Positions 1,724 through 7,718 of a stretch of DNA of 61,182 nucleotides are shown here, in pieces. Each line of letters begins with the position of its first letter. Position 1 is the stretch's first letter. The notes under the pieces are model-generated. The model was not told the DNA's origin and made no database searches. It saw nothing but the letters and a program-made list of their open reading frames with translations. Both the position numbers and the translations under genes were made by a program. This stretch comes from an uncultured bacterium (GTDB lineage Bacteria; Patescibacteriota; Dojkabacteria; SC72): the NCBI GenBank assembly GCA_903840015.1, contig CAIMEL010000008.1, positions 1-61,182 on the forward strand, in the 5' to 3' direction.

Positions 1724-2248
1724 ATGAATCTCAAAGTCGGATCTAAGGTCTTCTATCCATCACACGGTGCAGGTTGGGTCAGAGCAGAGAAAGAGATAGA
1801 GTTTAATGGTGAAATAAAAAAGTACTTTGAGTTCGAACTAGTAACTAACCCATTGAGAATATCCGCTCCAATAGAGAATGTTGAAAATTTGGGAATTAGA
1901 GCTGTACTTCCAGTAGAACAGATTAAAGAAGCTATAAAAGAACTTAAGAAAAATCCAAGTGTTAAACCAAAGGTTAAGGATTTCAACATAATGTTGAATC
2001 TCTTTAAAGACTTGGAAGAAAGCTCTGATTTAAAAGCATCAATACAGATAATACAGTACTGCAATAGTGTAAAGAAAAGTAGAGAGAAAGAGGGCCGATT
2101 AATACCTGTAAGTATTGAAAAGCAGATAGAGAATGCCATAAGAAATATCGTAGGCGAATTAGCAGTATCTAGTGGTACCACACTAAAAACAGCTTCCCTA
2201 AATTTCTCTAAGATAACAGGTATCGAAGTAAATATTGAGAGAGATTAA
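1724..2248 (+). CDS. CarD-like/TRCF-domain RNA polymerase-binding protein
   Basis: N-terminal KVGSKVFYPSHGAG...ISAPIENVENLGIR is the CarD RNAP-interaction domain. Confidence 0.8.
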   Translation: MNLKVGSKVFYPSHGAGWVRAEKEIEFNGEIKKYFEFELVTNPLRISAPIENVENLGIRAVLPVEQIKEAIKELKKNPSVKPKVKDFNIMLNLFKDLEESSDLKASIQIIQYCNSVKKSREKEGRLIPVSIEKQIENAIRNIVGELAVSSGTTLKTASLNFSKITGIEVNIERD

Positions 2249-5145
2249 TCTATCTTAATAAATATCTTCTTCCCGTTTAAAACAATCTCATTGGTATACT
2301 CTACCCCATCTTCTGAGACTAAGATGTCTTTGACAGACATTTCTGTATGATTCTTTTCTAAGTATTTCTGTAAAGAAACCTGCTGGTCTGAATCTTCAAA
2401 TTTAAGATGTAATGTCACAACATCATCGATCTTAAATCCACCCTTTTTCCTCATATCCCTATACTTCCTCAAGAACTCATTCCTTAGACCCTCCTCTTTC
2501 AAATCGTCAGACATTCTCACATCTATGGAAACATACATTGTGCCCTCTCCTGCAGAAATGAATCCTTCTTCTTGGATCCTCTCCTTTGAGAATTTCACTT
2601 CCTTAACATTCAACTCTTCCTTTACAATTTCATTCATAACAACATCATCTATGCCCATAAATGCTACAGATAGTGGTTGTCTCAAATTAAGTTTAGCATC
2701 CTCCCTGGCCTTCAAGCCATTTGAACAAACCGTTCTAACTGTATCCATTTTTGAAAGTATCTCCTCATCAATATCCTTTCCCATAAATTTAGGATACTCT
2801 TCTAAATGTACAGATAATTTTGCATCCTTAAGATCCAAACCAACTACTAAATTCTGATACATCTCCTCATCTACAAAGGGGATCATTGGAGCTGAGATTT
2901 GACTGAAGAGCACTAAACAGTAGTGTAGAGTTCCAAGTGCATCAGAATCTCCAACCTTAAATCTGTTTCTTGACCTTCTGATATACCACTGCGAAAGATC
3001 TTTAACGAAATCTTCCATATTTCTACTTGCATTTGCCATATCATATCTGTCCATTAACTTTTCAACATCCATTGCCAATTTCCTCACCTTAGAAACAATC
3101 CATCTATCCATTACATTGGTTAATGCTGTAGCATCATACTTTGAATTATCCCAGTTATGTAATTTTGCGTAGGTAACAAAATAGTTGTACGAATTCCAAA
3201 GAGGAAGATAGAATCTCCTACGAACATCCTCCAACCCATTCCAGCTAAATCGAATATTAGCACCTACCGAAGATGTAACATAGTTCCATCTCAGGATATC
3301 GGAACCAACCTTTTCAGCAGCTTCATCAAATTTAATGTAGGTAGGTTTGGATTTACTCATTCTCTCATTGTTCTCATCTCTAACCTCAGCAAATCCAAGT
3401 ACCTCACGATATGGAATCTGCTTCTCCAATACAACTCCGAAAACAAGCATTGAGTAGAACCAAAGTCTCACCTGTTCAATCATCTCTGTTATGAAGTCGG
3501 CAGGGAACCATTTTTCCCAATATCCCCTATCCTCCAAGTATTTCAATGTCGAGAATGGAACAACACCTGCGTCCAACCAACAATCACCAACATCAGCAAC
3601 CCTCTCTACCTCTTCTCCACATTTTGGGCATTTAATTTTAATATCATCAATCCACGGTCTATGTACGCTTGGTAAATCATCAACTAGCTTCGGTTCAAGA
3701 GCCAATTTCTTTAATTCCTCCTTACTCCCAACTACATGCAAGTTTCCACACTTCTTACATTCATAGAAAGGCAAAGCTAATCCGTAGAATCGTTTTCTAC
3801 TAATCATCCAATCTCCCATTCCATCCAACCAGCCTAACATTCTTTTACCTACATACTCTGGATTCCACTTTACAGTTTCTGATGCTTTTTTTAGATCTTC
3901 TTTAATCGATCGAACATCTAAGAACCAGTTATCTTCTAACCTAAACAAACATTTAGTACCACATCTCCAACAGTGAGGATAGCTATGCTCATACTCCTCT
4001 GTTTTGAAAAGTAAGTTCTTAGATTCAAGATATTTTAATACTTCAGGAGCAACATCATGAGCATATTTACCAGTTAAATCACCATACCCTTCCAAGAATC
4101 TTCCTGTAGAATCAAGAGGAGCAAGTGTATCAGCCTTAAGTTCTAGACCCAATTCAAAATCTTCCTGTCCACAACCTGGAGCTATATGCACAACCCCAGA
4201 ACCAGTTGAAGAATCAACTAAATTCCAAGACACTATGGAGTGAGAGATATTCTTTTGAGCATCAATCTCAAACAAAGAATCATATTCCAATCCAAGAATC
4301 TCCTTAACATCAACACTCTCCACATCCTTCATATTCATCCTCTTCGCGGCATCTGCACCAAGATATACTGTCTTCCCATCATAATTGGTTTTAACATACT
4401 CCAATTCTGGATTTACAGCCAACAAAACATTTGCAGCAAGAGTCCATGGTGTTGTCGTCCATGCAAGGACATACTCATTCTTCCTACCGGTTATTTTAAA
4501 CAAAACATACACGGCAGTATCCTTGATCATCTTGTAACCATCAGCCTGCTCATGTTGAGAAAGTCCAGTCTCACATCTTGGACACCATGTTGTAGCAGAT
4601 TTATCTTTGTACAACAGACCTTTCTCCTGACACTTTTTAAGAAAATGCCAAATATACAGGTTGTTTGTTTCAGACATTGTATAGTAGCTATTATCCCAAT
4701 CCATGAACATTCCCAATCTTTCAGATTGCTCTGTCTGAATCTTAGAAAATTTGTTTACCCTTGCAACACAAGCATTCGTAAAATTATCCATTCCGTAATC
4801 CAAAATATCCTTCTTACTGTTAAATCCTAAATCTCTCTCAACTCCTACCTCTACCCACAGTCCTTGGCAATCAAAACCATTCTGAAATCTCTGCTCAAAA
4901 CCTTGCATATTCTTGTATCTCTGAACAACATCTTTGTATGTCCTAGCCCAAGCATGATGTACTCCCATTGGATTATTCGCCGTTATTGGTCCATCAATGA
5001 AAGAGAAGTTTTTCTTAGATTTGTTATTCTTTTCTAAATACTTCTTCACAATTGATTTCTCATTCCACAGATTCATAATATCTTTCTCCATTTGTACAAA
5101 ATCAACATTAGCTTTAACCTCTCTTAATTTGCTAGCTTTAGCCAT
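2245..5145 (-). CDS. ileS: Isoleucine--tRNA ligase, type 2, with GVHH signature
   Basis: DGPITANN..GVHH, WTTTPWTL and GSGVVHIAP editing domain, DWMISRKR, RMSKS; no IleRS1 C-terminal Zn domain; T-box with AUC specifier upstream. Confidence 0.97.
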   Translation of the reverse strand: MAKASKLREVKANVDFVQMEKDIMNLWNEKSIVKKYLEKNNKSKKNFSFIDGPITANNPMGVHHAWARTYKDVVQRYKNMQGFEQRFQNGFDCQGLWVEVGVERDLGFNSKKDILDYGMDNFTNACVARVNKFSKIQTEQSERLGMFMDWDNSYYTMSETNNLYIWHFLKKCQEKGLLYKDKSATTWCPRCETGLSQHEQADGYKMIKDTAVYVLFKITGRKNEYVLAWTTTPWTLAANVLLAVNPELEYVKTNYDGKTVYLGADAAKRMNMKDVESVDVKEILGLEYDSLFEIDAQKNISHSIVSWNLVDSSTGSGVVHIAPGCGQEDFELGLELKADTLAPLDSTGRFLEGYGDLTGKYAHDVAPEVLKYLESKNLLFKTEEYEHSYPHCWRCGTKCLFRLEDNWFLDVRSIKEDLKKASETVKWNPEYVGKRMLGWLDGMGDWMISRKRFYGLALPFYECKKCGNLHVVGSKEELKKLALEPKLVDDLPSVHRPWIDDIKIKCPKCGEEVERVADVGDCWLDAGVVPFSTLKYLEDRGYWEKWFPADFITEMIEQVRLWFYSMLVFGVVLEKQIPYREVLGFAEVRDENNERMSKSKPTYIKFDEAAEKVGSDILRWNYVTSSVGANIRFSWNGLEDVRRRFYLPLWNSYNYFVTYAKLHNWDNSKYDATALTNVMDRWIVSKVRKLAMDVEKLMDRYDMANASRNMEDFVKDLSQWYIRRSRNRFKVGDSDALGTLHYCLVLFSQISAPMIPFVDEEMYQNLVVGLDLKDAKLSVHLEEYPKFMGKDIDEEILSKMDTVRTVCSNGLKAREDAKLNLRQPLSVAFMGIDDVVMNEIVKEELNVKEVKFSKERIQEEGFISAGEGTMYVSIDVRMSDDLKEEGLRNEFLRKYRDMRKKGGFKIDDVVTLHLKFEDSDQQVSLQKYLEKNHTEMSVKDILVSEDGVEYTNEIVLNGKKIFIKID

Positions 5146-5163: not shown

Positions 5164-5222
5164 TAAACAAAAAGCCCCCTTGTAGAAACTAGTATATTGT
5201 ATACTAATCTTTACAAAGGGGC
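5164..5222 (-). terminator. Intrinsic terminator of the ileS T-box leader
   Basis: Imperfect 23-bp hairpin GCCCCUUUGUAAAGAUUAGUAUA / UAUACUAGUUUCUACAAGGGGGC followed by UUUUUGUUU; its 5' arm is the antiterminator 3' strand. Confidence 0.88.
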
Positions 5223-5391
5223 GAACATATTACATATTTCGCGGTACCACCCTATTCAAAGCAACATTACTGTTACTTCCTCTGAACCACACAGTGTATG
5301 GTTCGGATCTTTGATAACGGAGATCTACCGATGGAGTCTACTTGCATTCGCTTTCTTTCCACCACTTACCAGTGATAGCTGGGTCAAAGTG
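5164..5391 (-). promoter_or_regulatory. T-box riboswitch (tRNA-Ile sensing), ultrashort Stem I, transcriptional expression platform
   Basis: Minus strand: Stem I CAC-UUU-GA-C-CCAG[CU AUC A]CUGG-U-AA-GUG (5391-5363); Stem II GUGGA..AAGAA..AGUA..UCCAU; IIA/B pseudoknot CGG/CCG plus GAUCU/AGAUC; Stem III 5304-5284; AGGG-UGGUACC-GCG antiterminator pairing with CGC-CCCU. Confidence 0.93.
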
Positions 5392-5398
5392 TTTCCCC

Positions 5399-5407
5399 AT
5401 TATATCA
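5399..5407 (-). promoter_or_regulatory. Extended -10 promoter (TGnTATAAT) for the T-box/ileS transcript
   Basis: TGATATAAT ends 7 nt before the first base of Stem I. Confidence 0.75.
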
Positions 5408-5444
5408 CACTCATATGGTATCTTAGAAATGGCTTGGAGTGTAG

Positions 5445-5450
5445 TATAAT
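5445..5450 (+). promoter_or_regulatory. -10 box of pepF-like gene (probably leaderless)
   Basis: TATAAT 5 nt before ATG 5456. Confidence 0.6.
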
Positions 5451-5455
5451 GGGGA

Positions 5456-7231
5456 ATGAAAACAACTTGGAATTTAGAACAGCTATACAAGAATCAGAAT
5501 GATCCACAGATTGAATTAGATACAGATGTCGCAATATCAAAAAACAAAACTTTTGTAAAAAAATGGAAAGCAAACAGAGAATATCTCAGCAATCCAAAAA
5601 TTCTAAGAGCAGCTATTGAAGAATATGAGGAGCTAGAAGAAAAATACGGCCAAGCTATGAAGCCGTTTTACTACTTCATCCTCTTAAATTCCCTAAATCA
5701 AACAGACAGCAATATCAAAGCTAAACTTAACAAACTTTCAGATTTGTATACACGTTTAAGTAATGATATTCAATTTTTTGAATTAAATATCTCAAAAATT
5801 TCCGAAGAAAAGCAGAAACTATTTCTCACATCTCCCGACCTAGTAAAATACAAACATTTTCTCGAGGGATTATTTCTAAGTGGTAAATATATTCTTACGG
5901 ATATGGAGGAAAGGGTTTTCAATTCAATGAGCAAAACATCTTACTTCAACTGGGTAGATATGCTCTCTGAGCTATTGGACAAACAGGAATTGAGTATAAA
6001 GGGGGAGGATGGAAAAACAAAACAGATCCATTACAATGAAATTAGTAAATATTTTGAATCAAGAGACAAGAAGGTTCGACATTTTGCAGCAAAGGAGTTC
6101 AACAAGGTAAATAGTAAGTATGCTGAAATTGCTGAATTTGAGATAAATTCAGTGCTTGAAAGCAAGTACATATCAGACACATACAGAAAAGTAAAAAGAG
6201 CAGATCTTCTAAGACATATAGAAGATGATATAGAGACAGAGATTGTAGATACTCTTGTAAAAACAGTTACTGAGAATTTTGATATATCTCGAAACTACTA
6301 CAAATACAAGGCTAAGTCTTTAGGTGTAAAACAATTAGGATACCATGATCGTCATGTTCCATTGGGAAATGCTACAAAGGAGTATCAATATAGCGAAGCT
6401 ATGGATATTGTAAAGAAAACTTTCTACTCTTTAGATAAAGAATTTGGAGATATTGTTGAAAGATTTCAATTAAACGGACAGTATGATGTATACCCTCAGA
6501 AAGGCAAATCGGGAGGAGCTTTTTGTATAAATGTTAGTAAATCACTACCTACATACATTCTGTTAAACCACAATATGAAAGTGCATGATGTTTTAACAAT
6601 AGCCCATGAAAGTGGACATGGTATACATTCAGAACTATCCACATCTCAATCAGCTGTTAACAGTGATTACCCTACCTCGTTGGCTGAGACAGCAAGTACA
6701 TTTTTTGAAGATTTTACTCTACAAAACATTCTTGAAACCGCTAACGAAGAGGAAAGATATACAATCTTAGGTCAGAAAATGCACAATGATGTGTCAACAA
6801 TATTCGCACAGGTTGCTTTATATAACTTTGAAACAGAATTGCACAGAGAATTTAGGCGGAAAGGATATGTAGATAGAGATACAATATCAGAGCTTTTCTG
6901 TAAGCACATGCATGCATACTTGGGAGATTCTGTAAAAATAGATGAGGGTATGAAAAATGGATGGATATACTGGAGCCATATTCGTAGATATTTCTATGTT
7001 TATTCATATGCAAGTGGCCTCCTTATATCCAAATCACTACAAGCAATGGTTCGAGAGAACCCGAAAAAGATTTCTTTAGTAAAAACTTTTCTATCTTCTG
7101 GGAGTATCAAATCGCCACGGGAAATATTTTTAGATATGGGTATTGATATATCTAGAAAGGATATTTGGTTGAAGGGTATTAATGAGGTAAAATATATGTT
7201 AGATAACTTAATTAGAAATAATTATGGGTGA
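5456..7231 (+). CDS. pepF: M3B oligoendopeptidase F family
   Basis: N-terminal WNLEQLY, GKSGGAFC, HESGH (HExxH), LAETAS, WSHIRRYFYVYSYA. Confidence 0.88.
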   Translation: MKTTWNLEQLYKNQNDPQIELDTDVAISKNKTFVKKWKANREYLSNPKILRAAIEEYEELEEKYGQAMKPFYYFILLNSLNQTDSNIKAKLNKLSDLYTRLSNDIQFFELNISKISEEKQKLFLTSPDLVKYKHFLEGLFLSGKYILTDMEERVFNSMSKTSYFNWVDMLSELLDKQELSIKGEDGKTKQIHYNEISKYFESRDKKVRHFAAKEFNKVNSKYAEIAEFEINSVLESKYISDTYRKVKRADLLRHIEDDIETEIVDTLVKTVTENFDISRNYYKYKAKSLGVKQLGYHDRHVPLGNATKEYQYSEAMDIVKKTFYSLDKEFGDIVERFQLNGQYDVYPQKGKSGGAFCINVSKSLPTYILLNHNMKVHDVLTIAHESGHGIHSELSTSQSAVNSDYPTSLAETASTFFEDFTLQNILETANEEERYTILGQKMHNDVSTIFAQVALYNFETELHREFRRKGYVDRDTISELFCKHMHAYLGDSVKIDEGMKNGWIYWSHIRRYFYVYSYASGLLISKSLQAMVRENPKKISLVKTFLSSGSIKSPREIFLDMGIDISRKDIWLKGINEVKYMLDNLIRNNYG

Positions 7232-7628: not shown

Positions 7629-7631
7629 AAA

Positions 7632-7702
7632 TTGCCGGACCTAGATTCGAACTAGGATTAACGGTTCCAGAGACCGTCGTCCTACCATTAGACGATCCGG
7701 CA
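7632..7702 (-). tRNA. tRNA-Gln(CUG), CCA not encoded
   Basis: Acceptor TGCCGGA/TCCGGCA, anticodon arm ACGGT-ctCTGga-ACCGT, T loop GTTCGAAT. Confidence 0.95.
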
Positions 7703-7718
7703 ATATCACACGATTATA

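Follow-up and report, generated by a model that had tools for sequence, protein, structure and literature searches.

An ultrashort-Stem I T-box leader with a candidate transcription terminator upstream of ileS in Dojkabacteria and other bacteria of the candidate phyla radiation

Reviews of T-box riboswitches state that the platform contacting the tRNA elbow speeds tRNA capture, with the decision falling before the polymerase reaches the terminator, and they present an ultrashort Stem I as a translational, actinobacterial speciality. In the scheme published in 2023, Class III is defined by a short Stem I, an apical specifier loop of 5-6 nt and a required Stem II, while Classes III and IV "mostly" regulate translation (PMC10482949), a wording that leaves room for known exceptions; for the groove between Stem I and Stem II, high affinity has been reported (PMC10482949). 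The short-stem model of TBDB is named "isoleucyl translational", and the 2005 discovery paper describes actinobacterial ileS T-boxes that carry Shine-Dalgarno (SD) sequestrators in place of terminators. Here, we describe the leader of the isoleucyl-tRNA synthetase gene ileS in a 61,182-nt stretch of DNA from an uncultured bacterium of the Dojkabacteria (contig CAIMEL010000008.1, assembly GCA_903840015.1), referred to as the window, in which the decoding module of the ultrashort type is joined to a terminator-like hairpin and a U-tract. Judging from its sequence and conservation, this leader is very probably a T-box that responds to uncharged tRNA-Ile(GAU) and regulates ileS through transcription attenuation, without an elbow platform. 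The initial annotation of the window had likewise taken the ultrashort Stem I as a hallmark of actinobacterial translational T-boxes, in agreement with the published accounts.

The complete leader lies within the 262 bases that separate the divergent M3 peptidase gene from the ileS start codon (5145), and its host, according to the IleRS protein, is a member of Candidatus Dojkabacteria (candidate phyla radiation, CPR, or Patescibacteria), with 64-71% amino acid identity to metagenome-assembled genomes (MAGs) of the group. Every T-box element that the initial annotation had read on the minus strand is present at its place, from the extended -10 and the 29-nt Stem I with its AUC in the terminal loop CUAUCA above a K-turn-like motif, through the S-turn of Stem II, the IIA/B pseudoknot and Stem III, to the UGGUACC bulge and a terminator with U-tract that excludes the antiterminator (Table 1). 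Two corrections are needed: the terminator, given there as 23 bp, has 22 bp and one A.C mismatch, and the list had overlooked a 9-bp hairpin between IIA/B and Stem III.

Homologous leaders were found upstream of ileS in 13 related loci by nhmmer searches with the leader, and further leaders were gathered with a DNA pattern for the loop, K-turn and S-turn. Covariance models of both T-box kinds, the use of which the initial annotation had proposed, match the window copy. The Rfam T-box model (RF00230) aligns at 5214..5396(-) over model positions 1-219 with 54.3 bits (E = 2.9e-11 in a local search and 4.2e-9 over the whole window on both strands), and it is the sole non-tRNA match. A second model, R1, covers the decoding domain and was trained exclusively on 14 actinobacterial ultrashort ileS leaders; it gives a single match in the window, at 5307..5394(-), with 44.6 bits (E ~3e-8) over model positions 1-95 of 95, thereby aligning Stem I at full length. 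Among 76 ileS loci, R1 recovers 12 Dojkabacteria leaders and two other CPR leaders; among the pattern-derived loci, it recovers 33 CPR leaders, two of Actinomyces type and, weakly, one canonical leader, while about 50 chance matches to the pattern all go undetected. These results assign the decoding module to the actinobacterial ultrashort type, K-turn layout and S-turn strings included.

Conservation was assessed by transferring the window structure to an alignment (A2) of 13 full-architecture Dojkabacteria leaders and counting pairs. In the conformer with antiterminator and pseudoknot, 94% of cells are paired, as against 33-46% in slid controls, and 27 of the 46 pairs are compensatory, a count reached by none of 500 shuffles. 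In the terminator conformer, the corresponding value is 96.5% (slid controls, 42-52%), with compensatory changes at 10 of 22 pairs; that count is reached by 14 of 500 shuffles, while none of the 500 reaches the cells paired or the covariation score. Both mutually exclusive conformers covary and are therefore under selection, a hallmark of switches. The exclusivity is direct, as the 5' arm of the terminator (GCCCC, 5222..5218) is also the 3' strand of the antiterminator. Computed energies are -5.9 kcal/mol for the antiterminator versus -27.9 kcal/mol for the terminator, within the ranges given by TBDB for transcriptional T-boxes (-7.4+-4.2 and -19.5+-7.9, respectively).

The individual elements follow the same pattern. 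The apical helix of Stem I is 100% paired, with two of its four pairs compensatory, and across CPR it occurs as GCAG/CUGC, GCGG/CCGC, GAGG/CCUC, GUGG/CCAC or CUAG/CUAG; AUC followed by a purine is found in 12 of the 13 nhmmer-found relatives, Stem I of L012 being masked by Ns. The helices of Stem II carry compensatory changes, the purine strings of its S-turn are invariant and shared with Actinobacteria, and the specifier loop and the UGG of the bulge are likewise invariant in A2. The IIB pseudoknot has changed on both sides at 5/5 pairs (91.5% paired), and Stem III is compensatory at 7/7 pairs and 100% paired. In 21 of 22 Dojkabacteria-type leaders, TGnTATAAT precedes the apical helix by 14-18 nt, in line with the initial annotation, which had placed an extended -10 promoter at the right distance. 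The leader of the window folds with a z-score of -4.18 relative to shuffles, and its unconstrained minimum free energy (MFE) fold recovers the apical helix of Stem I, Stem II, the extra hairpin, Stem III and the terminator.

Table 1. Features of the ileS leader and its neighbourhood. Positions are those of the window; RNA position 1 is window base 5396, and the window coordinate equals 5397 minus the RNA position.
Feature	Position	Strand	Description or basis
T-box leader, all elements	5407..5165	minus	Sequence reading, element by element
Extended -10, TGaTATAAT	5399..5407 (TG 5407..5406, TATAAT 5404..5399)	minus	Read in sequence; without a good -35
Ultrashort Stem I, 29 nt	5391..5363	minus	Rfam alignment, full-length R1 alignment, covariation
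Stem I basal helix, CAC/GUG	5391..5389 with 5365..5363	minus	RNA positions 6-8 with 32-34
K-turn	UUU bulge 5388..5386; G5385.A5366; A5384.A5367	minus	G12.A31 and A13.A30 in RNA numbering
Stem I apical helix and loop	CCAG 5382..5379 with CUGG 5372..5369; loop CUAUCA 5378..5373	minus	Loop of 6 nt
Specifier codon AUC (Ile)	5376..5374	minus	Followed by the conserved purine A5373
Stem II with S-turn	5362..5331	minus	RNA positions 35-66; GAAAGAAAG facing AAGUAGA
Stem II helices	Proximal 5362..5358 with 5335..5331	minus	Distal helix GC/GC, GAAU closing loop
Stem IIA, CGG/CCG	5330..5328 with 5320..5318	minus	
IIB pseudoknot, GAUCU/AGAUC	Loop 5325..5321 with 5310..5306	minus	Partner strand 11 nt downstream
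Extra hairpin, 9 bp	5304..5284	minus	GAACCAUAC-ACU-GUGUGGUUC, between IIA/B and Stem III; RNA positions 93-113
Stem III, 7 bp	5278..5259	minus	Loop AGUAAU; RNA positions 119-138; matched by Rfam
T-box sequence AAUAGGGUGGUACCGCG	5256..5240	minus	Rfam match, covariation
Antiterminator	5252..5218	minus	Helix A1 GGG/CCC (5252..5250 with 5220..5218)
Antiterminator helix A2, GCGAA/UUCGC	5242..5238 with 5225..5221	minus	
T-box bulge UGGUACC, 7 nt	5249..5243	minus	UGGU complementary to tRNA 3' end ACCA
Terminator hairpin	5222..5174	minus	22 bp and one A.C mismatch over 23 stacked positions; loop CAA
U-tract UUUUUGUUU	5173..5165	minus	Directly 3' of the terminator hairpin
ileS AUG	5145..5143	minus	28 nt past the 3' end of the terminator hairpin; not preceded by an SD-like sequence
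ileS, regulated gene	2245..5145	minus	966 aa; TIGR00392, 691.7 bits (cut-off 621.4)
M3 peptidase gene, divergent neighbour	5456..7231	plus	Family match

The combination is not confined to the window. The search upstream of ileS across CPR genomes, which the initial annotation had suggested, yielded about 50 CPR leaders of ultrashort-plus-terminator architecture, in Dojkabacteria, Saccharibacteria, Magasanikbacteria and others; the earlier description of a mixed class holds in that an ultrashort decoding module is joined to a terminator, although it is no one-off and belongs to a CPR-wide family. In an automated search for a hairpin ending no more than 2 nt from a U-run, such a structure was detected in 27/27 Dojkabacteria-type leaders (-20 to -33 kcal/mol), 17/20 other CPR leaders and 0/16 actinobacterial leaders. 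The three other CPR leaders missed by the script are L137, L162 and L108 (loci are designated L with a number); on reading, the U-run of L137 and L162 is preceded by a longer-range helix.

Several leaders depart from this layout. In L119, L137, L162 and L173 (Saccharimonadales), the helix adjacent to the U-run can be read by eye as a pairing of sequence following the antiterminator with the Stem III loop and the 3' half of that stem; such a helix would enclose the whole antiterminator rather than invade its 3' strand, which would be a different competition scheme. Strongly reduced ultrashort leaders are seen in L003, L005 and L087, which apparently keep only a small IIA-like hairpin and lack Stem III, and in L084, L160 and L035, where Stem II leads almost directly to the T-box; these six and L070, another reduced leader, all retain a strong terminator and U-run. 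The leader of L163 (Dojkabacteria HKST-UBA13) resembles the Actinomyces type, and no obvious U-run terminator was seen in it. Four other Dojkabacteria loci (L007, L010, L011 and L013) have no T-box, the ileS start codon standing 7 nt after TATGATATAAT; their ileS mRNA looks leaderless, and the riboswitch has been lost or was never gained within the same class.

The arrangement suggests the following scheme. Transcription would start a few bases downstream of the extended -10, at a predicted position near 5392, and the nascent RNA would fold the ultrashort Stem I with AUC displayed in the apical loop. The K-turn and the IIA/B pseudoknot would hold Stem I beside the S-turn of Stem II, creating an anticodon-binding groove as in the actinobacterial ileS T-boxes, while Stem I lacks the distal platform that would receive the tRNA elbow. 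In the case of an uncharged tRNA, the 3' ACCA would pair with the UGGU of the bulge and stabilise the weak antiterminator (about -6 kcal/mol), permitting readthrough into ileS. With a charged tRNA, or with none, the shared GCCCC strand would instead be captured by the far more stable 22-bp hairpin (about -28 kcal/mol), which, together with the U-tract, would stop transcription about 20 nt short of the start codon. We infer tRNA binding, actual termination and a co-transcriptional decision without elbow contact from this arrangement. Candidate answers to how tRNA could be captured fast enough without the elbow are a high affinity of the groove, slow transcription in these organisms, and the distance of about 130 nt from the pseudoknot to the U-tract, which the extra hairpin and the unusually long terminator lengthen.

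Several observations weigh against transcription attenuation by an elbow-less T-box. The distal Stem I platform has been reported as necessary, on kinetic grounds, in the transcriptional T-boxes studied (PMC7583486), and the mechanism of an elbow-less terminator T-box is therefore hypothetical. In the K-turn of the window copy, the second tandem pair is A.A, as opposed to A.G in most relatives. The window holds no tRNA-Ile gene, so that the GAU anticodon and the discriminator A73 of the cognate tRNA are presumed. With 54.3 bits, the Rfam match falls below the gathering score of 93 and is seen only with E-value thresholds. Finally, a simple terminator scanner did not call the hairpin, whose stem exceeds 20 pairs and contains a mismatch, and a consensus promoter scanner made no call at the extended -10, which lacks a good -35; owing to these very properties, the silence of the scanners is not taken as absence. 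The low Rfam score is explained by the absence of 76 Stem I model positions, replaced by a 6-nt loop, and scores below the gathering threshold were also obtained for 17/17 other CPR leaders tested and for one actinobacterial leader.

Regarding the missing elbow contact, a tRNA-responsive transcriptional T-box could obtain it elsewhere, either from the extra hairpin at 5304..5284 touching the tRNA or from a K-turn-binding or other protein that would assist the slow recruitment of tRNA in the absence of the elbow contact. The hairpin is an insertion relative to the Rfam model, is compensatory at 7/9 pairs and persists in Dojkabacteria leaders that lack the IIA/B pseudoknot (L006, L008, L009, L102 and L133), a degree of conservation that such a role would fit; K-turn proteins, moreover, may assist suboptimal K-turns (PMC7583486), and the A.A pair would make the window copy a candidate for such help. 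However, the hairpin is lineage-specific, being absent from actinobacterial and Saccharibacteria leaders, and the terminator architecture occurs without it in Saccharibacteria, Magasanikbacteria, L084, L160 and L035; for the protein, no candidate was identified. We consider this explanation improbable.

Still less probable is a translational T-box like those of the actinobacterial relatives, in which the long hairpin would be a sequestrator of the ribosome-binding region. The decoding module indeed belongs to a type that published accounts treat as translational, but the hairpin ends at 5174 with UUUUUGUUU directly after it, and the AUG at 5145 and the 28 nt preceding it form an A/U-rich stretch without SD and outside any conserved pairing, so that the hairpin cannot act by occlusion. 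Furthermore, SD-like motifs are rare in the window: a tetramer of this kind at -18..-5 occurs in 8 of 59 long open reading frames (ORFs), and 21 of the 59 have a -10-like hexamer located 3-12 nt ahead of the start, both counts resting on uncurated start codons, which suggests frequent leaderless or SD-independent initiation. In Saccharibacteria leaders of the same architecture, a clear AAGGAG or GGAG does occur, yet it lies between the U-run and the start codon, downstream of and outside the hairpin, whereas actinobacterial leaders have no U-run at all. The suggestion in the initial annotation that a terminator suits an SD-poor genome agrees with the low count in the window, but SD loss is not needed for it; given that Saccharibacteria leaders keep the SD, the terminator platform is a property of the CPR lineage and no special adaptation to SD loss. 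In keeping with leaderless or SD-independent initiation, TAGTATAAT precedes the ATG of the divergent M3 peptidase gene by 5 nt (window 5441..5458, plus strand).

That the leader is a decayed or constitutive attenuator, or that the plus-strand ORF 5197..5502 is the real feature, is hardly credible despite the sub-threshold Rfam score and the overlap of this 101-codon ORF with the leader, as compensatory changes between species preserve nearly every helix, no variation is seen in the specifier, the S-turn or the T-box bulge, and the ORF, rejected as a gene here and rightly called spurious in the initial annotation, has no family match and is open in this window only, being interrupted in 12/12 relatives. 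A further assignment, in which the hairpin would be the terminator of a neighbouring gene, was rejected, the sole neighbour being the divergent M3 peptidase gene (5456..7231, plus strand).

Beyond the single locus, it is possible, and we propose it tentatively, that a T-box lineage spanning the CPR phylum decides termination co-transcriptionally without an elbow platform, relying on no contacts other than the anticodon/S-turn groove and the acceptor end. In that case, the links between long platform and transcriptional control and, in Actinobacteria, between ultrashort Stem I and translational control would be sampling artefacts of cultivated Gram-positive bacteria, and the actinobacterial translational and CPR terminator forms would go back to a common ancestor; exchange may conceivably have taken place between Saccharibacteria and the Actinobacteria that host them. 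The coupling of ultrashort Stem I and terminator in a conserved, covarying family offers a natural test of the kinetic argument for the long Stem I. The family also adds CPR bacteria to the hosts of T-boxes; few regulators are known from their tiny genomes, and their leaders, scoring below the Rfam threshold, are likely to be systematically unannotated. The compact module could serve as a gene-control part in organisms without SD-dependent initiation. Some Saccharibacteria with the same architecture can be cultivated together with their hosts, and the prediction is therefore testable in vivo. In the full-text literature covered, which did not include Sherwood 2015 and Vitreschak 2008, no link of a T-box to Patescibacteria, candidate phyla radiation, Saccharibacteria or TM7 was found, and with moderate confidence the ultrashort T-box with terminator looks like an undescribed variant.

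Additional observations concern the genes and records around these leaders. A small gene directly follows the Ile T-box in three CPR genomes, encoding an NYN domain (L035:379-915), a GNAT acetyltransferase (L173:1044-1613) and a CYTH domain (L175:5210-5815); ileS comes next in L035 and L173 and was not found within the L175 locus. The ultrashort Ile leader is therefore not always placed directly on ileS. In Ktedonobacteria (L044:300-670 and L073:280-650), a canonical long-Stem-I T-box with terminator precedes a gene starting MKTKLLYH, which by eye looks like an AlaX-type editing protein, followed by ileS. With regard to tRNA genes, a tRNA-Gln(CTG) gene (window 7631..7703, minus strand) lies within a few kb of ileS, and the same proximity is seen in L081, L091, L102, L133, L146, L155, L156 and L194, a synteny conserved in many Dojkabacteria relatives. 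The sole tRNA-Ile that ARAGORN gave in the related loci, tRNA-Ile(GAT) at L099:2487-2558 (minus strand), was rejected as a false positive, as it lies inside a 1008-codon Saccharibacterium ileS ORF. Lastly, many MAG records whose ileS and leader clearly resemble those of Dojkabacteria or Microgenomates (L001, L003, L008, L012, L014, L060, L015, L020, L023, L027, L031 and L035) are titled "uncultured Candidatus Saccharibacteria" or "uncultured Gammaproteobacteria", labels that look unreliable.

Compared with the described T-box systems, the leader shares features with four. The glyQS T-box (Class II) is likewise a reduced transcriptional T-box in which one of two tRNA-body contacts has been dropped, but it retains the long Stem I platform and dispenses with Stem II, the reverse of the window leader (PMC10482949). 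The ileS T-box with intermediate Stem I of Actinomyces and Schaalia (Class IV; L089, L170 and similar leaders) is also Ile-specific, does without the elbow contact site, and agrees with the window leader in S-turn and pseudoknot; its specifier, however, lies in a lateral bulge beneath a second short helix, and its expression platform is translational, without a U-run. With the canonical transcriptional T-box (RF00230; Bacillus subtilis tyrS type, Class I), the window leader has in common the T-box sequence, the competition between antiterminator and terminator, the U-tract, Stem II, IIA/B, Stem III, a K-turn at the base of Stem I and an aminoacyl-tRNA synthetase gene as the regulated gene. It differs in having a Stem I of 29 nt versus roughly 100 in the model, in presenting the specifier in an apical rather than an internal loop, and in lacking the AG bulge and distal loop that form the double T-loop platform for the tRNA elbow.

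The closest counterpart of the decoding module is the actinobacterial ultrashort ("US", Zhang-lab Class III) ileS T-box of M. smegmatis, M. tuberculosis and Nocardia farcinica (PDB 6UFG and 6UFM, per PMC7583486). Both display AUC in an apical loop of 5-6 nt on a 4-bp helix above a K-turn, have no distal T-loop platform, and combine the S-turn (GAAGAAAG opposite AGUAGA), the IIA/B pseudoknot, Stem III and the UGGUACC bulge with ileS downstream. In contrast to the window leader, which is AT-rich, extends Stem II by one basal A-U pair, carries the extra hairpin before Stem III and occurs in a CPR host, the known Class III leaders are GC-rich and come from Actinobacteria. The main difference lies in the expression platform: the actinobacterial leaders sequester the SD and have no U-run, whereas the leader of the window has no SD and carries a 22-bp hairpin followed by a U-tract.

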